Origin: an uncultured Actinomycetota bacterium
GTDB taxonomy: Bacteria > Actinomycetota > Actinomycetes > JAHEKZ01
Assembly: GCA_963718235.1 (NCBI GenBank)
Contig: CAVQYR010000002.1
Coordinates: 480,001-544,000, forward strand
DNA: 64,000 bases
Direction of reading: 5' to 3'
The position numbers were made by a program, and so were the translations under genes. Positions 49,025 to 62,045 of the stretch are shown piece by piece; position 1 is the first letter of the stretch, and each line of letters opens with the position of its first letter. The notes beneath the pieces are model-generated. The model saw only the letters and a program-made list of their open reading frames with translations. It was not told where the DNA came from and made no database searches.

Positions 49025-49651
49025 GTGCCCACCACGCCCGCGGCCCCCCGTCGGGGCCGGCCGCCCAGGCACAAGCGCGCCGACATCTTGGACGCGGCCT
49101 CCGAGGTGCTGGTCTTCCGCGGTTACGAGAGCACCCGGTACAGCGACGTCGCCGAGGCCAGTGGTGTCCCCGTCGGGAGCCTGCAGCACTACTTCCCGAC
49201 GATCGAGGTCTTGCGACGCGATGCCCTGCGCCACAAGGTTCGGGCCGAGCTGACCGCCCTGGCAACGGAGCTCGCTCAGATCGACGACCCGTGGGCGCGG
49301 ATTCGTCACATCATCGTGTCCTCGGTGTCCCTGGAACCCGCGCGTCGCCGCGGTGGCTGGGTCCTGTGGCTCGAGTACTGGCGGGCGGCGGCCCACGACC
49401 CCGAGCTGGCCGACGACACCCACGAGGTGGACGCCGCCTGGCTGGACCTCGCGGCGCAGTGTGTCGACGACGGCGTCCGATCGGGGCTCTTCCGGCTCGA
49501 CGGTACGCCACACGAGGCGGCGGTGGAGCTGCACGCCCTGCTCGACGGGCTCGGGGTGGGGCTGGCCGTGGAGCACCCGCCCGAACAGGCCGCCGAGGCG
49601 ATCGCTCTGGTGGAGCGCGCCGCGCGGCGGATGCTGTTCTCCACGCGCTGA
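49025..49651 (+). CDS. TetR family regulator (BetI-like C-terminus)
   Basis: 'ILDAA..V...RGY..T...DVA..SGV..GSL.HYF', 'LWLEYW'. Confidence 0.9.
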   Translation: MPTTPAAPRRGRPPRHKRADILDAASEVLVFRGYESTRYSDVAEASGVPVGSLQHYFPTIEVLRRDALRHKVRAELTALATELAQIDDPWARIRHIIVSSVSLEPARRRGGWVLWLEYWRAAAHDPELADDTHEVDAAWLDLAAQCVDDGVRSGLFRLDGTPHEAAVELHALLDGLGVGLAVEHPPEQAAEAIALVERAARRMLFSTR

Positions 49652-49787
49652 CCGACGGCCGGTCACCCACCGTTGCGCCTGACGGGTGGTGGGGTCTTGA
49701 CGGGGACGCCGCCCGGGGTCATCATTCCTATACCCATATGGCGCTATGAGAATGACTCGGGTCGTTCCCACGAGAGGAGCATCAGCC

Positions 49788-51164
49788 ATGACGCTGAACC
49801 GTCGGGACTTCATCAAGGTGGCCGGGGCGGCCGCCGCGGTCGTTGCCTGCTCCCCGGCCACCCGGGCCGTGGCAGCGACCAGGCAGCGGGTGCTGGTGGT
49901 CGGCGCGGGCATGGCCGGAATGGCGGCGGCGCGACAGCTGGTCGACGCCGGACACACGGTGACGGTGCTCGAGGCGCGCAACCGCCTCGGCGGCCGGATC
50001 CACACGAGCAACGCGTGGGCCGACGCACCGATCGACCTCGGCGCCTCGTGGATCCACGAGACGCAGGGCAACCCGCTCACCTCGCTGGCGAGCCAGGCGG
50101 GGGCGCGCACGGTCACCACCGACTACGCCAGCTTCGCCACCTACGACGCGAGCCTGGGCAAGATCACGACCGGCTCCGGTTCGGCTTACGCGTCCATGCA
50201 GGCCAAGTTCGACAGCGCCGTCAAGGCCGGCTACAACACCAACAAGGACACCGCGCTGCGTACGGCTCTGGAGAGCAGCCTCAAGCTGAGCACGCTGACC
50301 GAGCCGAACAAGCGGTTGGCCAACCACTTCATCGTGAGCCTGGCCGACGACGAGTACGCCGGCGACTCCGCCGAGCTGTCCAGCTGGTACTGGGACAGCA
50401 TGGGCGGCTACTCGGGTCTCGACGCCGTTCTGCCCGACGGATACGTCGCGCTGGTGAACCACCTGGCCACCGGGATCAACGTCCAGCTGAACCGCACCGT
50501 CACGGCCATCTCCCACACGTCGACGGGCGTCACGGTGACCACGTCCGGCGGCACCTTCACCGGCGACCGCGTGATCGTGACCGTACCGCTGGGTGTCCTC
50601 AAGAAGAACGCGATCACCTTCAGCCCCGCCCTGTCCTCCACCAAGACGACCGCGATCAGCAAGCTCGGGATGGGCACGGGGACCCTGAGCAAGGTGTTCC
50701 TGCGCTTCCCGAGCGTCTTCTGGGACAACGTCGACTGGATCGAGTACGTCGCGTCGACGGCCGACCGGGGCCGGTTCCACCAGTGGCTCAACGTCGCCCG
50801 GGTGTCCGGGGGCAAACCGATCCTGCTGGGCTTCCTCGGTGGGTTCTACGCCCAGTCGGCCGAGGCGATGACCGACCAGCAGATCGTCGACGCCGCCATG
50901 GGCCCCCTGCGCACGATGTACGGCGCGAGCATCCCCAACCCGGTCGCATGGCAGATCCCGCGATGGAGCACCGACCCGTTCTCCTACGGGTCGTACTCCT
51001 TCAACAAGCTGAACTCGACGCCGAGCATGCGCAACAACCTGGCGGCCGACGTCAGCAAGCGGGTCTTCTTCGCTGGTGAGGCCACCCACAAGACGCTGTT
51101 CGCCACGGTGCACGGCGCGTACCTGTCCGGACAGCGCGCGGCCACCGAGATCATGAACGCCTGA
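49788..51164 (+). CDS. Tat-exported flavin amine oxidase (polyamine oxidase/LSD1-like)
   Basis: NRRDFI signal; 'GAGMAG', 'EARNRLGGR', 'DLGASWIH', 'FAGEAT....[10 protein letters not shown]'. Confidence 0.92.
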
Positions 51165-52903: not shown

Positions 52904-55336
52904 GTGACGATGTCGACCTCAGCGCACCAGTTGGCGTGGACCTCCGGCCGAACCCGGGTCAGCCTGGTCGTGGGGCTGCTCGCCACCACGAGCGTCCTCC
53001 TCGGTGTGCCTCAGCTGGCAGGGGCCGCCGCGGCGGACCGAGCCGTCCCTGCTCCCACTCCGAGCTACCAGGTGACGATCGTGGCGCGCACCTGCGACTC
53101 GTTCGCCTCGATCATGGCCAACCGGGCCCGGAACAACATCCAGGAGAGCCTGCAGGACCTCGGCCCCGACACGCTCTACTCCAGTGGTCAGCCGGTGAGT
53201 CCCAGGGTCGAGGACGTCAACGCCACCACCCAGGTGGCCGGCTGCGACCCGCTGGCCGGGTGGAGGTTCCAGCTGGGCACGGGGATCGCCGGCAAGTCGG
53301 ACTTCCTCAGCCAGGTCAGCAACCCGTACGCACCTCCGCCCGGACCGACCACTGCGTCGGTGCCCGAGCTGGATCCACAGGGTCAGCCAACCGGCCGCAC
53401 CGTCCAGGGCGCGCGCACCATCACGTTGACCTCGGCCCAGGCCCAGCTCGCCCAGCAGTCGAGCCGGTTGTGGATCCAGGGCGGCGTGGTGGGAGACCCC
53501 CTGCTGGACAACCCGCCGTCCCCCTTCGACCCGCCGCAGGCGTTCGGCGCCCTGCGCTGCGCGGTCGACAACCTCAACGGCGACAACGTCGAGTGGATCG
53601 GCTTCCCGAGCGGGGCCACCCACGTGTTCTGCTACTACTTCGCAGTCAGCCCTCCGCCTGAGGCGGCGACCATCCGCGTCGTCAAGCAGCTTCCGGGCTC
53701 CGAGGCGCCGGTCAACCGCACCTTCGGGTTCGCCGGCAACGTCAGCTACGTGCCGGGGCCGACCGGAGACCCCAACGACAACCCCTTCGGTGTCCCCGTC
53801 AACGGCCGGACCGGGTCGGTCGACTTCGTCCGGGCTGCCGACACGTCGGCCCCATGGACGTTGTACGAGCAGGAGGACCCCGACTGGGCGCTGACCAACG
53901 CAGACTGCCGGTCCCGAGACGGCACCAGCACGATCACGCCACCCGGAACGGTGCAACAGGGCCCGGCGGGGAGGTTCGCCGTCACCCTCGGCGCGGGCGA
54001 CCTGGTCACGTGCACCTTCACCAACGTGCGCGACATCGCCGGCCTCGCGATCGAGAAGGTCACCGAGGAGGGCACGGGCACGTTCGACTTCCGGGCCAGC
54101 AGCCCGAGCGGTCTGAACACGGCCTCGGCGTCGGTCACCACTCTCCAGCCGGGAGACCCGGTCCGCGCGCTGGAGATCACCGGCGCCTCGGGCACCTTCA
54201 CTGCCCAGGAGGACCTGCCCTCGGGCGTGGCCGCCGGCGCGTGGACGATCAGCCGGGTGTCGTGCAACGGCACCGACCTCTCACCGACTCCGGTCGTCGG
54301 CCAGCCAGCAAGCGGCACGATCGCCCCGGGGGCGAACGTCTTGTGCACCGTCTACAACAGCCCGCAAGGGTCGATCACCGTCCGCAAGACCTCCGAGGGA
54401 GGCACTGGAACGTTCTCCTTCGTCATCGTCCCCCTGGGGGGCTTCCCCCTCGACGGAACGGGCGGCAACGTCGGTCTGAGCGCGACGACGAACCAGCAGG
54501 GTGTGCGTGTCCCTGCAACGCCCACGGACGGGTCCAACACCGGCCTGCCCTTCCAGCGCTACGCCGTCGTCGAGCTCGCACCGCCCAGCGAGCCGAGCGG
54601 GACGTGGCGGCTCACCGAGGCCACGTGTGACGCGTCGGACAGCACGTCGGTGCGCTCGGCCGGCCTCATCGGTGCCGCCTTCACCCTCTCGCCGGCGGAT
54701 CCGACAGTGACCTGCGACTTCACCGACGAGCTGGTGCCAGCCGCCGCGCTCCAGGTGGTGAAGACCGTGTCCGGCGACGCCTCGGCCCGAACGGGTGAGG
54801 TGCTGGTCTCGGTCCAGTGCAACGACGCGACGACGGCATCCCTGGTCGGACCTGCAGGGCGGCCCGGCCCGTTCTCGTTGCCTCAGCGCCTCGTCTTCAC
54901 CGACTTCCTGTGGAACGCCCAGGACGAGCCGACGCTGTCGTGTCGCGTCCGGGAGGCCGAGACCGGAGTCGCCGACGGGGCGACCGTCGCCACCGAGTGG
55001 ACGGTCGTGACCGACGGGGTCCCGGCTCCGCCGACGTCCGGCGAGTCGGTCCGGGTCGACCCGACACCGGGACAGGTGGTCACGGTGCGGGTCGAGAACA
55101 CCTACCAGAGCGCCTCGGGGCCGACGCCGACACCGACCCCGTCGGGGACCGACGGCGGTGGAACGGGCGGGGCCGCCGGCGGAGGGGCGGGCGGTCCCCT
55201 TCCGGTCACGGGCCTGTCCGGCGCGCTGGCCCTCACCCTCGGGGCCGGCCTGGTGCTGCTCGTGCTGGGCGGGATCGCGCTGATCGTGTCCTACGGTCGT
55301 GGCCGCCGGACGGCGGAGCGCCCTCAGTCTTCGTAA
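52904..55336 (+). CDS. Sortase-anchored surface protein with repeated Ig/prealbumin-like domains
   Basis: Signal peptide; repeats ending 'VTCTFTN', 'LCTVYN', 'VTCDFTD'; PT/G linker; LPVTG followed by TM and basic tail. Confidence 0.82.
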   Translation: MTMSTSAHQLAWTSGRTRVSLVVGLLATTSVLLGVPQLAGAAAADRAVPAPTPSYQVTIVARTCDSFASIMANRARNNIQESLQDLGPDTLYSSGQPVSPRVEDVNATTQVAGCDPLAGWRFQLGTGIAGKSDFLSQVSNPYAPPPGPTTASVPELDPQGQPTGRTVQGARTITLTSAQAQLAQQSSRLWIQGGVVGDPLLDNPPSPFDPPQAFGALRCAVDNLNGDNVEWIGFPSGATHVFCYYFAVSPPPEAATIRVVKQLPGSEAPVNRTFGFAGNVSYVPGPTGDPNDNPFGVPVNGRTGSVDFVRAADTSAPWTLYEQEDPDWALTNADCRSRDGTSTITPPGTVQQGPAGRFAVTLGAGDLVTCTFTNVRDIAGLAIEKVTEEGTGTFDFRASSPSGLNTASASVTTLQPGDPVRALEITGASGTFTAQEDLPSGVAAGAWTISRVSCNGTDLSPTPVVGQPASGTIAPGANVLCTVYNSPQGSITVRKTSEGGTGTFSFVIVPLGGFPLDGTGGNVGLSATTNQQGVRVPATPTDGSNTGLPFQRYAVVELAPPSEPSGTWRLTEATCDASDSTSVRSAGLIGAAFTLSPADPTVTCDFTDELVPAAALQVVKTVSGDASARTGEVLVSVQCNDATTASLVGPAGRPGPFSLPQRLVFTDFLWNAQDEPTLSCRVREAETGVADGATVATEWTVVTDGVPAPPTSGESVRVDPTPGQVVTVRVENTYQSASGPTPTPTPSGTDGGGTGGAAGGGAGGPLPVTGLSGALALTLGAGLVLLVLGGIALIVSYGRGRRTAERPQSS

Positions 55337-55406
55337 CCCGGTACCCCGAGGGGCTGGCGGTGCCGCGCGGGCGCGGCCATGCTGTCAGCGTCGAGAGGGG
55401 CTCCGG

Positions 55407-57296
55407 ATGGGTGTCGAGTCCGATCAGGTGACCGGTTCCGCGCCGACGAGCACGCGTCCGGGTCCGACGCTGGACCCTCTCGTGATGACCCCGGAGGAGA
55501 TGCGTCGGACCGGCTACGCCGTCGTGGACGCCATGGTGGGGTGGGCCGACCAGCCGGACCCGGTCATTCGACGGGCCGACCCCGAGTCCATGCAGGCATG
55601 CCTGCACACGGCGTGCCCCGAGGTCGGCGTCGGCATGGACGACGTCCTGGAGCGGCTGTGCCACGACGTGCTTCCCTTCGCGAGCAAGGTCGGTCACCCG
55701 GGCTACTTCGCCTACATCCCCGGCTCGACGACCTGGCCGTCGGCACTGGCGGAGTTCATGGCCAACGTCACCAACGTCTACTGCGGCTCGTGGATGGAGG
55801 CGGCCGGACCGAGCCAGCTGGAGCTCACGGTGCTCGACTGGTTCCGGGACTGGCTCGGGATGCCGCCGGAAAGCGACGGCGTCCTCGTGTCGGGCGGGTC
55901 GGCGTCCAACCTGACCGCGTTGGCTGCTGCCCGCGAGCTCCGGCTCGGTCCGATGAGCAAGCACGCGGTCATCTACTGCGCCGACCAGGCGCACTCGTCG
56001 GTGGGGCGTGCGGCGCGGGTGCTCGGTTTCCGTCCCGACCAGGTGCACGTCATACCCTCCGACGACCGCTTTCGGCTGCGACCTGAGGCGTTGCGGGCGG
56101 CGATCGAGTTCGACCTGGCCGGTGGGCGTCAGCCGTTGGTCGTGTGCGCTGCGGCCGGGTCGACCAACACCGGAAGCGTCGACCCCATGCACGAGATCGC
56201 TGACCTGTGCGCCGAGCTGGGCGTGTGGATGCACGTCGACGCGGCCTACGGCGGCTTCGCCGCCCTGACCGAGCGTGGTGCAGCAGCACTGGACGGGATC
56301 GAGCGCGCCGACTCGGTCACGCTCGACCCGCACAAGTGGCTGTTCCAGCCAATGGAGTGTGGTGCCTTGCTGGTCCGCGAGCACGGGGCACTGGAGAAGG
56401 CGTTCGGGGTCCTTCCGGACTACCTCGCCGATGCCGACGCCCACGGCACCGAGGTGAACTTCAGCGACCGCGGGCTCCAGCTGACCCGCAATGCGAGGGC
56501 GCTGAAGGTGTGGGCGTCCCTCTCGGCGTTCGGGGTGTCGGCGTTCCGCAGCGTCGTCGACCGGAGCCTCGACCTGGTCGGGGTAGCCCAGCAGTGCATC
56601 GAGTCGGACCCCGACCTCGAGCTGATGAACCCCGCAAGCCTGGGCATCGTGTGCTTCCGGCGCAGGGTGGACGGACTGAGCGAGGCCCAGACGGCGCGGG
56701 TGAACCTGTGGCTGGCGGGCGAGCTGGAGGCAACCGGTCGGGCGATGGTCTCCTCCACCCGTCTGCACGGTCGATTCGCCCTGCGGATGTGCGTGCTGAA
56801 CCACCTCACCCAGGAGGAGGACGTCCGCTGGACCCTCGACTACCTCGCGCGCACCCCGATCCCGTCCCGGCTCTTGGTCGACGACGTCGATGGTTCAGCC
56901 GGCTGGGCCGCGCTGCCCCTGCTGTCCCTCCTGACCGAGGAGGGAGTGGACTTCCTGGTGAACCACTCCTTCCGGCGTACGTTCTCGGCGGGGTCGACGA
57001 TCGTGTCGCAGTGGGCCACCGACCGTGACTTCTACGTGGTGCTCGACGGCAAGGTCGCGGTGAGCGTGGACGGCGAGCTCGTGCGGACCCTCGAGCAGGG
57101 GGACTTCTTCGGCGAGATCGCCGCATCGGACTGGGGAAGCGGCTACGGCTACGTGCGGCTGGCCGACGTCCGGGCCGAGTCCGAGGCCGACCTGATGCTT
57201 GTACCTGCGGAGGCACTGGCCAAGCTGATGGGTTCCGAGCCCGCCTTCCGCGAACGTGTCCTCACTGCTCGCTCCGACCGGCTCGCGCAGATGTGA
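55407..57296 (+). CDS. Group II PLP-dependent (aromatic amino acid-type) decarboxylase fused to a C-terminal cyclic nucleotide-binding domain
   Basis: 'HPGYFAY', 'SGGS.SNL', 'HSSV', 'HVDAAYGG', 'DPHKW'; C-terminal 'FYVVLDG.V.V...L.QGDFFGEIA...R.ADV.A'. Confidence 0.9.
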   Translation: MGVESDQVTGSAPTSTRPGPTLDPLVMTPEEMRRTGYAVVDAMVGWADQPDPVIRRADPESMQACLHTACPEVGVGMDDVLERLCHDVLPFASKVGHPGYFAYIPGSTTWPSALAEFMANVTNVYCGSWMEAAGPSQLELTVLDWFRDWLGMPPESDGVLVSGGSASNLTALAAARELRLGPMSKHAVIYCADQAHSSVGRAARVLGFRPDQVHVIPSDDRFRLRPEALRAAIEFDLAGGRQPLVVCAAAGSTNTGSVDPMHEIADLCAELGVWMHVDAAYGGFAALTERGAAALDGIERADSVTLDPHKWLFQPMECGALLVREHGALEKAFGVLPDYLADADAHGTEVNFSDRGLQLTRNARALKVWASLSAFGVSAFRSVVDRSLDLVGVAQQCIESDPDLELMNPASLGIVCFRRRVDGLSEAQTARVNLWLAGELEATGRAMVSSTRLHGRFALRMCVLNHLTQEEDVRWTLDYLARTPIPSRLLVDDVDGSAGWAALPLLSLLTEEGVDFLVNHSFRRTFSAGSTIVSQWATDRDFYVVLDGKVAVSVDGELVRTLEQGDFFGEIAASDWGSGYGYVRLADVRAESEADLMLVPAEALAKLMGSEPAFRERVLTARSDRLAQM

Positions 57297-57327
57297 GGAC
57301 CTGGAGCAACCAGGGGACGAGAGGCAC

Positions 57328-57972
57328 ATGAGATTCCGCGACCGACGGGACGCCGGGCGTCAGCTCGCGGCGTCCCTCGCCTGGGTCCGACCGGAGCATC
57401 CGGTCGTGCTCGGTCTCCTGCGCGGGGGCGTACCCGTCGCCTTCGAGGTGGCTCGAGGGCTCGGGGCTCCGCTGGACGTGGTGATCGTTCGGAAGGTCGG
57501 GGTGCCCGGCCAGCCGGAGCTGGCGATGGGTGCGGTCGGCGAGGAGGATGCGCGGGTCCGCAACGCGTCGGTGATCCACGACGCCGGCGTGACCGTGACC
57601 CAGCTGGAGGCGGCCGAACGTGAAGCGGAGGCGCAGGTGAGGATCCGCGCCGGAGCCGTGCGCCGAGTCAAGCCACGCATCCCGCTGAAGGGGCGCACGG
57701 TGGTCATCGTCGACGACGGGGTGGCCACGGGGTCGACGGCACGCGCGGCGTGCCAGGTGGTTCGGACCGAGGGGGCAGGGCGTGTCGTCCTCGCCGTGCC
57801 GGTCGCCCCCGCCGAGACGGTCGTTGCGCTTCGGGAGGTGGCCGACGAGGTGGTGTGTCTCGACGTGCCGAGTCCCTTCTACTCCGTCGGTCAGTTCTAC
57901 GACGACTTCACCCAGGTCGAGGACGACGCCGTGATCGCCTGCTTGCGCGAGGTCGACCCGACCGAGGCGTAG
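57328..57972 (+). CDS. Phosphoribosyltransferase family protein
   Basis: 'FRDRRDAGRQLA', 'RGGVPVA', 'IVDDGVATGST'. Confidence 0.93.
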   Translation: MRFRDRRDAGRQLAASLAWVRPEHPVVLGLLRGGVPVAFEVARGLGAPLDVVIVRKVGVPGQPELAMGAVGEEDARVRNASVIHDAGVTVTQLEAAEREAEAQVRIRAGAVRRVKPRIPLKGRTVVIVDDGVATGSTARAACQVVRTEGAGRVVLAVPVAPAETVVALREVADEVVCLDVPSPFYSVGQFYDDFTQVEDDAVIACLREVDPTEA

Positions 57973-57986
57973 TGCTGGGCTTCGGC

Positions 57987-58583
57987 TCAGCGGGAGTCGA
58001 ACCAGGCTGGGAATCCATGGAGGTCGTCCAGGATCACGTCGGGGCTCACCTCCTCCAGAGACTCGCGGCTCACTCCTCCGGTGAGGACCACCACCGAGAC
58101 GGCATCGGCCGCGCGCGCGGCCGCCACGTCGGCCCAGTGGTCCCCGACGTACACGTCGGCCTGCCACTCGCGCAGGGCGATCGCCTTGTCGACCCCCCAC
58201 AGGTCCCCGACGAGGGCGTCGGTCGCCAGCCGGGACGCCGTCATCGTGACCTCGGCCAGTGGCTGGTGCTTCGCCGTGACCACCACGACTCGACCGCCGC
58301 TGGCCTGGACCGCAGCGATGGCCCGGCGCGCGCCGGGCATCGCGGTGGCCATGGCGGCACCGAACTTCGCCATGTGGACGCGGAACCGGCGAACGGCGTC
58401 ATCGACGTCTTCGTCACCGAAGGCGTCGAGCAGTGCGTCGCGAACCGGAGGTCCGAGCTGCTGAACGATCGCGTCGGCGTCGATCGTGCGCCCGGTCTCG
58501 TCGGCCAGCGCGTCCAGACTGGCCCGGATGCCGGCGCGGGAGTCGACGAGGGTCATGTCCAGGTCGAACCCGACGGTCAACAC
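57987..58583 (-). CDS. HAD family hydrolase
   Basis: 'FDLDMTLVDS', 'VTAK', 'YVGDH..D'. Confidence 0.92.
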   Translation of the reverse strand: MLTVGFDLDMTLVDSRAGIRASLDALADETGRTIDADAIVQQLGPPVRDALLDAFGDEDVDDAVRRFRVHMAKFGAAMATAMPGARRAIAAVQASGGRVVVVTAKHQPLAEVTMTASRLATDALVGDLWGVDKAIALREWQADVYVGDHWADVAAARAADAVSVVVLTGGVSRESLEEVSPDVILDDLHGFPAWFDSR

Positions 58584-59168: not shown

Positions 59169-61394
59169 TCACCCCGGGTCGGGGTCGAACCGACGGAGGC
59201 GAAGGCTGTTGGTGACCACGAAGACGCTGGAGAAGGCCATGGCGGCCCCCGCGATCAGCGGGTTGAGCAGACCCGCGGCGGCCAGCGGGATCGCCGCCAC
59301 GTTGTAGGCGAAGGCCCAGAACAGGTTGCCCTTGATCGTGGCCAGGACCCGCCGCGAGAGCTGGATGGCCTGCGGCACGGCCTGGAGGTCACCGCGGACG
59401 AGGGTCAGATCGCTGGCCTCGATCGCCACATCGGTCCCGGTACCCATCGAGATCCCGAGGTCGGCCTGGGCGAGCCCGGCAGCGTCATTGACCCCGTCAC
59501 CCACCATCGCCACGACCCGGCCCTGCTCCTGCAGCTCGCGGACGGCAGCGACCTTGCCTGCCGGGAGCACATCGGCGATGACGGTGTCGATCCCGACCTC
59601 CTGGGCGACACTGGCCGCGGCCCGGCGGTTGTCCCCGGTGAGCAGGACCGGGCGAAGCCCCATCTCCTTGAGCTGGGCCACCGCTGCGGCACTGGTCGGT
59701 TTCACCGTGTCGGCCACGACGAGCAGCCCGAGCACGACGCCGTCACCGCCGACCGCGACGACGGTGCGTCCGGCCGCCTCGGCCCGCTCGTACTGCGCGG
59801 CCAGGGCGGCCGGCAGACCCAGCGCCCAGGACTCCCGAAGCCACGACGGGCGCCCCGCGGCGACGGCTCGTCCGGCAACGACCCCCTGCACGCCCAGGCC
59901 CGCGACGCCGGCGAAGTCGCTGACCTCGGGAAGTGGCCCTACCCGGTCCTCGGCGGCAGCAGCGATCGCTCGTCCGACCGGATGCTCCGAGGCATGCTCG
60001 ACCGCACCCGCAAGGAGCAGCAGGTCATCCAGGCCCGTACCGTCAGCCGGGACGACGTCTACGAGACGCATTCGGCCCTCGGTCACCGTTCCGGTCTTGT
60101 CGAGGACGACGGTGTCGACCCGCCGGGTCGACTCGAGCATCTCCGGTCCCTTGATCAGGATCCCGAGCTGAGCGCCGCGACCGGTGCCGACCAGTAGTGC
60201 CGTCGGCGTGGCCAGGCCCAGGGCGCACGGGCACGCGATGATCAAGACCGCGACGGCCGCGCTGAACGCCATCGTGGCGCTCTCGCCCTGGAGCAGCCAG
60301 AAGAGCAGCGTCGCCAGTGAGATCGCGATGACGATCGGGACGAACACCGCGGACACCCGGTCCGCCAGACGCTGGACCGGGGCCTTGCCGCTCTGAGCCT
60401 GGGTCACCAGGCGAGCCATGGCCGCGAGCTGGGTGTCCTCACCCACCCGGGTCGCCTCGACAACCAGCCGCCCGCCGACGTTGACGCACCCGCCGACGAC
60501 GGGTTCGGAAGGCCCGACCTCGACGGGCACGCTCTCGCCGGTGAGCATCGAGGCGTCGACCGCCGACGTGCCGTCGCGCACCACGCCGTCCGTGGCGATC
60601 TTCTCTCCCGGTCGGACCACGAAGCGGTTGCCCACGGCGAGCTGTTCGATGGGCACGCGCACCTCGTGCCCATCGCGCACCAGGGTGACGTCCTTCGCAC
60701 CGAGGCGCAGCAACGCATGCAGGGCAGCACCGGACCGTCGCTTGGCACGGGCCTCGAGATAGCGACCGGTGAGGACGAAGACGGTCACCCCGGCGGCAAC
60801 CTCGAGATAGAGCTCGTCGGTGCTGCCCCGGCTGGCATCGGTGTGGAACGACATCGTCATGCCGGAGTCACCGGCGTCACCGAAGAACAACGAGTACAGC
60901 GACCAGCCGAACGCAGCAAGCACGCCCACGCTGATCAGGGTGTCCATCGTGGTGGTGCCGTGCCGCAGGTTGGTCCATGCAGCACGGTGAAAGGGCCAGG
61001 CACCCCACACCACGACAGGCGCGCTGAGGGTCAGGGCCAGCCACTGCCAGTTGCGGAACTGCAGGGCGGGAACCATCGACAAGACCACGACCGGGACGGT
61101 CAGGATCAGGCAGATCTGCAGGCGCTGCCGCAACGATCGGGTCGGGTCGTCCAGGTCGCTACCGGGAGCTTCGTCGGGCGAGGGGACGGGGAGCTGCGCG
61201 TGGTACCCGAGCGCCGCCACCGTGTCGAGAAGGTCGTCAGGGCTCACCGCGCTGTCGAAGGTCACGAACGCCTGCTCGGTGGCGTAGTTGACGTTTGCTG
61301 ACACGCCGTCCATCCGGTTGAGCTTCTTCTCGATCCGGGAGGCGCACGACGCGCACGTCATCCCCGTGATCTCCAGCTCCACCGAGCGGCTCAT
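59169..61394 (-). CDS. copA: Copper-type P1B heavy-metal translocating ATPase
   Basis: 'GMTCASC', 'TGES', 'CPC', 'DKTGT', 'SEHP', 'GDGVND', 'YN', 'MAFSS'. Confidence 0.93.
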   Translation of the reverse strand: MSRSVELEITGMTCASCASRIEKKLNRMDGVSANVNYATEQAFVTFDSAVSPDDLLDTVAALGYHAQLPVPSPDEAPGSDLDDPTRSLRQRLQICLILTVPVVVLSMVPALQFRNWQWLALTLSAPVVVWGAWPFHRAAWTNLRHGTTTMDTLISVGVLAAFGWSLYSLFFGDAGDSGMTMSFHTDASRGSTDELYLEVAAGVTVFVLTGRYLEARAKRRSGAALHALLRLGAKDVTLVRDGHEVRVPIEQLAVGNRFVVRPGEKIATDGVVRDGTSAVDASMLTGESVPVEVGPSEPVVGGCVNVGGRLVVEATRVGEDTQLAAMARLVTQAQSGKAPVQRLADRVSAVFVPIVIAISLATLLFWLLQGESATMAFSAAVAVLIIACPCALGLATPTALLVGTGRGAQLGILIKGPEMLESTRRVDTVVLDKTGTVTEGRMRLVDVVPADGTGLDDLLLLAGAVEHASEHPVGRAIAAAAEDRVGPLPEVSDFAGVAGLGVQGVVAGRAVAAGRPSWLRESWALGLPAALAAQYERAEAAGRTVVAVGGDGVVLGLLVVADTVKPTSAAAVAQLKEMGLRPVLLTGDNRRAAASVAQEVGIDTVIADVLPAGKVAAVRELQEQGRVVAMVGDGVNDAAGLAQADLGISMGTGTDVAIEASDLTLVRGDLQAVPQAIQLSRRVLATIKGNLFWAFAYNVAAIPLAAAGLLNPLIAGAAMAFSSVFVVTNSLRLRRFDPDPG

Positions 61395-61658: not shown

Positions 61659-62045
61659 TCAGGTGCCGCCGCTCGTGGGTGCCCAAGCACGAACGATGTC
61701 ACGCATGGAGATGATTCCCACGACGTCGGCGTCCTGGATCACCACGAGGTGGCGGAAACCCCCTCGGCGCATCGTCTCAGCCGCCTCCTCCAGGGTCCAC
61801 GAGGGGTCGGCGTACGCCGCCTCGTAGGTCAGGTGCTCACCGGACTTGGCCTGGTCGACGTCGAGGCCGGCGGCGATGGCCCGGACGACGTCACGCTCGG
61901 TCAGGATGCCCGGTCCGTGCGCGTCGGTGTCGATCACCACCACTGAGCCGACGCTTCGGTCGGCCATGAATCGACTGGCGTCCCGAAGGGAGTGGGTCGG
62001 CCCCACGCTGACGACCTGGTCGGACATCGTGTCGCGGACCAGCAC
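61659..62045 (-). CDS. CBS domain protein
   Basis: 'GILTERD', 'FRHL.V', 'GIISMRDI'. Confidence 0.9.
   Translation of the reverse strand: MLVRDTMSDQVVSVGPTHSLRDASRFMADRSVGSVVVIDTDAHGPGILTERDVVRAIAAGLDVDQAKSGEHLTYEAAYADPSWTLEEAAETMRRGGFRHLVVIQDADVVGIISMRDIVRAWAPTSGGT

Follow-up and report, generated by a model that had tools for sequence, protein, structure and literature searches.

We analysed a 64,000-nucleotide (nt) stretch of DNA from an uncultured Actinomycetota bacterium (GenBank assembly GCA_963718235.1, contig CAVQYR010000002.1, positions 480,001 to 544,000; hereafter the window). On its plus strand, at 55407..57296, lies a gene for a 629-amino-acid (aa) protein that joins a group II pyridoxal 5′-phosphate (PLP)-dependent decarboxylase to a C-terminal cyclic-nucleotide-binding (CNB) domain. 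The frame, which opens with the ATG at 55407 and closes with the stop at 57294-57296, is uninterrupted, and both domains match their Pfam models above the cut-off, in agreement with an initial annotation that had described a complete group II decarboxylase (motifs HVDAAYGG and DPHKW) followed in frame by a cNMP domain.

The purine-rich element GAGAGGGG (55393..55400, plus strand), read from the sequence, resembles a ribosome-binding site and ends 6 nt before the ATG. A longer alternative start is possible at a GTG at 55299; the closest homologue, P0002, begins in the alignment at the residue equivalent to ATG 55407. Given the spacing of GAGAGGGG and the equivalent start of P0002, the coordinates first assigned to the gene are right. 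Its G+C content at third codon positions (GC3) is 0.88, as in real genes of the window, and its codon bias is uniform. A sequence scan of 55000-58200 found neither a sigma-70-like promoter nor an intrinsic terminator. An RNA-library contig covers 56930-57198 with one letter different, which is not proof of transcription.

A complete group II decarboxylase

The catalytic region, Pyridoxal_deC (PF00282), occupies residues 59-418 (55581..56660, plus strand, as are all features of the gene) and was delimited by Pfam, by the match to the solved chain 4obu and by Foldseek. The Pfam match (E 5.2e-75; 252.9 bits against a cut-off of 27) covers profile positions 1-373 of 375. Three motifs mark the active site: DQAHSS (55983..56000) with H196, HVDAAYGG (residues 276-283, 56232..56255) with D278, and DPHKW (residues 307-311, 56325..56339) with the Schiff-base lysine K310 at 56334-56336. 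The last of these aligns with the HKW of every solved group II enzyme shown. H196, D278 and K310 are invariant among 30 aligned family members; from the fold type we take them to have the roles of the histidine, the aspartate and the Schiff-base lysine, with H196 presumably stacking on the cofactor ring.

The small C-terminal domain of the decarboxylase follows at residues 419-485 (56661..56861), as judged from the 4obu match, which extends to residue 480, and from the NCBIfam diaminobutyrate decarboxylase profile, which covers residues 69-480. A linker of residues 486-505 (56862..56921) then leads to the sensor domain; its length varies among relatives (alignment columns 497-560), and its block 491-500 has a low predicted local distance difference test (pLDDT) score in a full-length AlphaFold model whose mean pLDDT is 78.5.

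The closest solved chain by sequence is the Ruminococcus gnavus tryptophan decarboxylase 4obu (E 2.2e-78), followed by the Pseudomonas DOPA decarboxylase 7xin (E 6e-75) and by plant tryptophan and tyrosine decarboxylases; the lysine decarboxylase DfoJ and diaminobutyrate decarboxylase rank lower. Foldseek places the full-length model closest to 4obu as well (E 7e-33, template modelling score TMt 0.73), and its ranking is the same as the ranking by sequence. By sequence and fold, the catalytic domain is a complete group II PLP decarboxylase.

With the aromatic L-amino-acid decarboxylases (4obu/4obv, 7xin, 6eew, 6liu and 1js3) the protein shares the group II PLP fold (E 2.2e-78 to 3.5e-56 over residues ~25-480; TMt 0.67-0.73 in Foldseek) and the motifs DQAHSS, HVDAAYGG and DPHKW. 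By contrast, these enzymes have no CNB domain and align with nothing past query residue 483; identity is 27-33%, and the decarboxylase–CNB family differs from them in having G106, G127 and an invariant E131. All solved decarboxylase chains that were matched are 373-634 residues long except 6ebn_A, which has 1013 residues and matches only query residues 184-286. The earlier statement that characterised DOPA, tryptophan and tyrosine decarboxylases lack such a domain agrees with these solved chains, which align only within query residues 10-483.

The sensor domain carries an extended cassette

The Pfam cNMP_binding match (PF00027) spans residues 524-609 (56976..57233; profile positions 2-87 of 89; E 4.8e-12, 46.1 bits against a cut-off of 27.5), and with its flanking helices in the domain model the domain extends over about residues 497-629. 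We modelled residues 480-629 from 49 aligned domains and obtained a pLDDT of 86.1. The best fold matches of this model are the cAMP- or cGMP-bound domains of PKA-R, MlotiK1, HCN2/4 and PKG (template modelling score TMq 0.73-0.76, root-mean-square deviation 2.2-2.6 Å), and matches including 5k8s, 4muv, 3pna and 2q0a have a probability of 1.00 and TMq 0.67-0.76. CRP/FNR-type regulators are not its closest fold. As modelled, the sensor domain has the CNB fold. Pfam detected no helix–turn–helix (HTH) family after it, and the protein ends 20 residues past the Pfam match. A CRP/FNR transcription factor was considered and rejected on the lack of a C-terminal HTH and on a CRP-model score of 25.7 bits against a cut-off of 266.

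The phosphate-binding cassette, GDFFGEIAASDWGSGYGYVRLADV (residues 565-588, 57099..57170), located from translations and alignments, contains an insertion of 5 residues. G569, E570, A572, A573, W576, G577, R584 and A586 are invariant across the 49 aligned domains, and the Gly-Glu and Arg-x-Ala elements among them (G569, E570, R584 and A586) are invariant in the 30-member alignment too; in known CNB domains these elements hold the ribose 2′-OH and the cyclic phosphate. The family motif, GE[LI]AAx[DE]WGxx[FY]xxxRxA, recurs in 44 of 44 distinct cassette strings. From the glutamate to the arginine it counts 13 residues, a departure from the canonical 8 found in nine other GE...R cassettes of the same genome (read by eye from translations) and in the partner transporters of the major facilitator superfamily (MFS) described below. 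The spacing and the invariant Trp-Gly bear out the earlier description of a cassette that keeps Gly-Glu and Arg and has a short aromatic insertion. The CNB domains of PKA-R, PKG, HCN and MlotiK1 have the same fold (TMq up to 0.76) and the same Gly-Glu and Arg-x-Ala; the domain described here differs from them in its 5-residue insertion, with the invariant Trp-Gly between the cassette helix and the arginine, and sequence alignments with PKG end at the Gly-Glu.

With a profile of the domain we searched 1.84 billion representative proteins, considered the best 150 matches and fetched 18 single-domain high scorers. Multi-CNB proteins head the list. All 18 fetched proteins have the insertion-type cassette, and most of them carry C-terminal sequence of the decarboxylase, making them pieces of the same fusion. 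No decarboxylase part was seen in four (P0184, P0224, P0248 and P0260), which could be stand-alone domains, halves of split genes or truncated calls. Among the best 150 matches we saw this cassette in no other fused architecture; within that set it is confined to the decarboxylase family or to proteins with no visible partner.

A different departure from the canonical cassette occurs elsewhere in the window's genome, where 3 of the 13 CNB-domain matches lack Gly-Glu...Arg and read GWS... instead (G000:C1:1064937-1065188, C1:782354-783130). Two GWS-type domains stand in tandem in one 662-aa frame. These GWS-type domains are unlikely to bind nucleotides.

The fusion is conserved across three phyla

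Of the 120 best homologues listed (50-79% identity), all but P0023 (87% coverage) and P0026 (438 aa) carry both PF00282 and PF00027, 118 in total, and several are encoded on contigs of 0.5-3.5 Mb. A genome scan with one genome per species yielded at least 597 relatives, by patterns that also catch forms without the sensor domain. We analysed the best 80 of these loci by tblastn and took the presence of the CNB domain from tblastn coverage: in 55 the match continues through residue 599 or beyond (fused loci), and in the remaining 25, mostly Gemmatimonadota with a few cut by contig ends, it stops near residue 480-498. The fused loci belong to Mycobacteriales, Solirubrobacterales, Gaiellales, Acidimicrobiales, Streptosporangiaceae, Chloroflexota and Dormibacterota, and the fusion is thereby conserved across Actinomycetota, Chloroflexota and Dormibacterota. 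One relative (G035) has an open frame of 1298 aa with no Pfam domain in its first ~650 residues, which we took as a spurious upstream extension.

These data bear on whether an assembly or gene-calling artefact has joined two genes, a reading to which we attach a negligible probability. Public contigs are fragmentary and none spans the catalytic through to the sensor domain, so that they neither confirm nor contradict the junction itself. Against an artefact stand the single uninterrupted frame with its uniform codon bias, the presence of both domains in nearly all listed homologues from many independent assemblies as well as in the fused loci, and a near-identical 151-nt contig from another study that runs from the linker into the sensor domain (56869-57019). 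Because the architecture is conserved, we regard an artefact as refuted for practical purposes; it is conservation, and not reads, that decides.

A quick tree of the catalytic domain has an unsure root and very long outgroup branches, and two of its rows, L050 and L054, are mislabelled as to the CNB domain, being fused by tblastn coverage. In it, rows that lack the CNB domain are found at three or more separate places among the fused rows, and the Chloroflexota and Dormibacterota fusions group together (SH-aLRT 92) inside the actinobacterial diversity. The topology suggests repeated gain or loss of the sensor and movement of the gene between phyla; we claim no direction of change.

An MFS transporter with its own CNB domain is the dominant neighbour

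Genes at the related loci were called with a crude GC3-based caller and clustered by all-against-all BLAST, and Pfam was run on one representative per family; the fused loci are kin to one another, and the following counts are not of independent events. The dominant neighbour is an MFS transporter of ~550 aa that weakly resembles H+ antiporters of TIGR00900 and ends in a C-terminal CNB domain. Of the 55 fused loci, 32 have this transporter gene adjoining the decarboxylase, and in 31 of the 32 it encodes a canonical CNB domain of its own (FGEIALLxxxPRTATV); L013:7944-9596 is an example (among L001-L064), and the protein of L009, from a Mycolicibacterium strain, has two CNB domains in tandem. 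The NCBIfam model of Pat also matches the CNB domain of the partner MFS protein. The transporter gene can precede or follow the decarboxylase gene on the same strand, or be divergent from it, and these three gene orders argue that the linkage of MFS and decarboxylase–CNB genes is maintained. Four of the 25 sensor-less loci have an MFS neighbour; in three of these the transporter likewise lacks the CNB domain (L043, L044 and L056), and in L065 it keeps it.

Other neighbours recur less often. Ten of the 55 fused loci (L007, L008, L012, L025, L026, L028, L032, L034, L038 and L060) carry an agmatinase-like gene close by, whose L034 representative scores 182.6 bits against TIGR01230 (cut-off 174.3); this neighbour hints at a guanidino or polyamine pathway. 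A class III cyclase (cyclase-AAA) gene stands beside the fusion in 4 of the 55. Sensor-less orthologues from Gemmatimonadota (L067, L068, L069, L075, L077 and L080) lie a few genes from paaA/C-like and paaD-like (FeS_assembly_P) genes, which belong to phenylacetate catabolism. Just downstream of the fusion in a genome of the same genus (G001), a 176-aa open reading frame (L091:10341-10871) matches a class III cyclase domain over its last part only and is possibly a gene remnant.

Genes beside the fusion in the window

In the window, a gene on the plus strand with a phosphoribosyltransferase domain but no named family (57328..57972; Pfam Pribosyltran, E 4.7e-18) begins 31 nt after the decarboxylase–CNB stop and is possibly co-transcribed with it. 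Such a gene adjoins the fusion in four loci of different lineages (the window, L005, L018 and L093). We considered it as part of the system and set it aside, as only these four loci have it and the closest relatives, G001 and G005, do not. Beyond it, on the opposite strand, come HAD, flavodoxin-like and copper-ATPase genes; the copper-type P-type ATPase with an HMA domain (59169-61394, minus strand) and a small tandem-CBS protein (61659-62045, minus strand) are ordinary.

Upstream, ending 70 nt before the decarboxylase gene, is the gene for an 810-aa sortase-type surface protein (52904-55336) with SpaA-like prealbumin-fold repeats, an LPVTG sortase motif and a C-terminal membrane anchor. Further away, 4-6 kb upstream (49025-51164), lie the genes of a TetR-family regulator and, after it, of a flavin amine oxidase that carries a twin-arginine signal. 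This oxidase could consume an amine; with three unrelated genes between, we draw no link from it to the decarboxylase. Elsewhere in the window's genome there are two MFS–CNB genes with 30-38% identity to the neighbour MFS family.

Discussion

We propose that the C-terminal CNB domain is a built-in allosteric switch of the decarboxylase, with a cyclic nucleotide, probably cAMP, as its ligand; to this reading as a whole we give an even chance of being right. We infer binding and regulation from sequence, fold and conservation. The CNB domain would bind a 3′,5′-cyclic nucleotide, most likely cAMP because the genome has many class III cyclase and canonical CNB genes (12 cyclase-domain and 13 CNB matches), and the conserved Trp-Gly insertion may act as an extra lid capping the base. 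Ligand binding would then shift the C-terminal helices, and with them the whole CNB domain, relative to the catalytic dimer, and so change activity. Our guess at the direction is activation by relief of autoinhibition, after the examples of Pat and of plant glutamate decarboxylase. The usual role of the family would be signal-gated synthesis and export of an amine, by way of the MFS–CNB neighbour present in more than half of the fused loci. Since the fusion is conserved, it is reasonable to infer that the two domains are linked in regulation. The initial annotation had suggested biogenic-amine synthesis under direct allosteric control by cAMP, cGMP or another ligand. Its regulatory part fits the conserved fusion and cassette and the cNMP-like fold, and draws further indirect support from the CNB-bearing transporter beside most fused genes, from the joint lack of the domain in decarboxylase and transporter at L043, L044 and L056, and from the class III cyclase genes next to four of the fusions; an aromatic biogenic amine as product did not find such backing, as the decarboxylase–CNB protein reached no NCBIfam equivalog at its cut-off.

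Prediction of a complex between the decarboxylase and the CNB domain scored 0.49 (three runs: 0.54, 0.01 and 0.49), with the best control at 0.00; at least 10% of contacts are common to the runs, and the partner pLDDT is 77 or higher. The mark for such predictions was reached by 116 of 157 solved complexes and by 2 of 215 mismatched pairs, and at scores of 0.60 or below only 18 of the 157 solved complexes passed, along with both passing mismatches. The prediction lends weak support to a defined interface between catalytic and sensor domains.

Several observations weigh against a cAMP-gated decarboxylase. In the complex prediction, one run in three gave 0.01. Compared with all the solved or canonical CNB domains considered, the cassette has 5 additional residues; its insertion has a pLDDT below 50 in the full-length AlphaFold model (about 75 in the domain model), and the residue after the cassette arginine varies (L, T, S, I or A) and so gives no cue to base selectivity. 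Many bacterial domains of the CNB fold bind other ligands, as in CooA, FNR and PrfA. The window copy has neither a transporter nor a cyclase next to it. With this query, a full-length fusion was found in only 3 of 40 relatives (G001, G005 and G035, with G033 among the negatives) and in only 3 of 400 evenly sampled genomes of the phylum; being this rare, the fusion is an accessory function.

The departures of the cassette raise the question of what it senses. It is somewhat unlikely that the domain responds to a ligand other than cAMP or cGMP, such as a pyrimidine or 2′,3′-cyclic nucleotide or the enzyme's own substrate or product, with the tryptophan-bearing cassette as an adaptation to it. 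The 13-residue spacing and the invariance of the inserted Trp-Gly favour this possibility, as does the confinement of the cassette subtype, among the best profile matches, to the decarboxylase family or to proteins without a visible partner. The canonical cassette of the partner transporter would in turn allow for two different signals. However, the glutamate and Arg-x-Ala are invariant, which would be unexpected if no cyclic phosphate were bound, and the fold matches are true cNMP binders rather than CooA/FNR-type sensors. The transporter also invites a reading in which the CNB domain is an assembly or docking module with no ligand switch, pairing for instance with the CNB domain of the MFS protein so that the amine is made at its exporter. 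The adjacency of two CNB-bearing genes in 31 of the 55 fused loci fits such pairing, and so does the joint absence of the domain from both genes at L043, L044 and L056. We nevertheless consider it quite improbable: the invariant ligand-contact residues argue for a bound ligand, 23 of the 55 fused loci have no MFS neighbour, as is the case in the window, and at L065 a CNB-bearing MFS gene stands beside a decarboxylase without the domain. The built-in switch can itself be extended to both genes. We put forward tentatively, as a possibility that is rather less than probable, that decarboxylase–CNB and MFS form a two-gene module in which one or more second messengers gate amine synthesis and export, and in which the tryptophan-bearing cassette may differ in ligand preference from that of the transporter, so that two signals are integrated.

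What the catalytic domain does is a separate question, and its answer is compatible with any reading of the sensor. The best NCBIfam score, for the diaminobutyrate decarboxylase RhbB, was 268.3 bits against a cut-off of 900, and PanP (143.4 against 606), MfnA (103.8 against 299) and histidine decarboxylase (71.8 against 305) followed. The substrate could be aromatic, as the ranking of solved chains suggests, or basic, as the local segment and the agmatinase neighbour suggest. That segment, WMEAAGPS, is closer to WDQSAGGT of DfoJ than to W..SSPA.TELE of the aromatic and histidine enzymes, and E131, which lies in its region, is invariant in the family. In the mobile catalytic loop, F352 (56460..56462) aligns with the tyrosine of plant tyrosine decarboxylase (6liu/8x0o), the loop residue that protonates the carbanion; the position is Phe in at least 90% of 30 family members and Leu in the remaining three sequences. 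In the plant enzymes, a change from Tyr to Phe at the equivalent site gives aldehyde synthases. WMEAAGPS with E131, and F352, therefore call for caution about both an aromatic substrate and plain decarboxylation. The catalytic domain might be an aldehyde synthase, coupling decarboxylation to oxidative deamination, or act on a basic amino acid, and its product would then not be a classical biogenic amine. Besides these residues and the RhbB score, the agmatinase equivalog near 10 of the fused loci and the paa-like genes near Gemmatimonadota orthologues without the CNB domain point in this direction. We still judge it unlikely, as the leading matches by sequence and fold are aromatic decarboxylases, and as the R. 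gnavus tryptophan (4obu) and Pseudomonas DOPA (7xin) decarboxylases also have no tyrosine at the position aligned to F352, yet are entered as decarboxylases. The loop around F352, moreover, has a pLDDT below 50 in the full-length model and its alignments are uncertain, and the context genes were identified from one representative per family only.

To our knowledge, few of the bacterial systems studied so far have a CNB domain joined directly to a metabolic enzyme, a mycobacterial acetyltransferase being the textbook case. That protein, Pat/KATmt, is likewise an enzyme of Actinomycetota with a covalently attached CNB domain, and works by cAMP-relieved autoinhibition. It differs in having an N-terminal sensor with a canonical cassette on a GNAT acetyltransferase, whereas here the sensor is C-terminal, has the insertion cassette and is attached to a PLP decarboxylase. 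Control of PLP decarboxylases through their C termini or by nucleotides has precedents: plant glutamate decarboxylase has a C-terminal calmodulin-binding autoinhibitory tail, Escherichia coli GadB has a C-terminal plug and E. coli LdcI is inhibited by guanosine tetraphosphate (ppGpp). In these systems a PLP decarboxylase can be gated by an extension at its C terminus or bound by a nucleotide alarmone, but none of them is known to use a CNB domain or a cyclic nucleotide.

Our literature searches found no paper with the decarboxylase–CNB architecture, and database annotations of its homologues read generic PLP enzymes or aromatic decarboxylases. The passage of a 2023 review that deals with MFS transporters fused to CNB domains (PMC10710835) records these fusions as an observation, describes UspA fusions as uncharacterised and makes no mention of a paired decarboxylase. 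The MFS–CNB architecture is that of the usual neighbour of the decarboxylase–CNB family, and its pairing with the decarboxylase, seen in 31 of the 55 fused loci, is new in this analysis.

If the proposal is correct, a PLP decarboxylase under direct second-messenger control would represent a new class of cAMP effector. The cassette insertion is a defined, mutable feature for studying the ligand choice of CNB domains, and the paired CNB-bearing exporter offers a ready-made system for post-translational control of a whole pathway. In soil Actinomycetota and Chloroflexota, the fusion would make the output of amines or polyamines depend on cAMP signalling. As each decarboxylation uses up a proton and sets CO2 free, the pH or CO2 balance of these organisms might be linked to cAMP in the same way.

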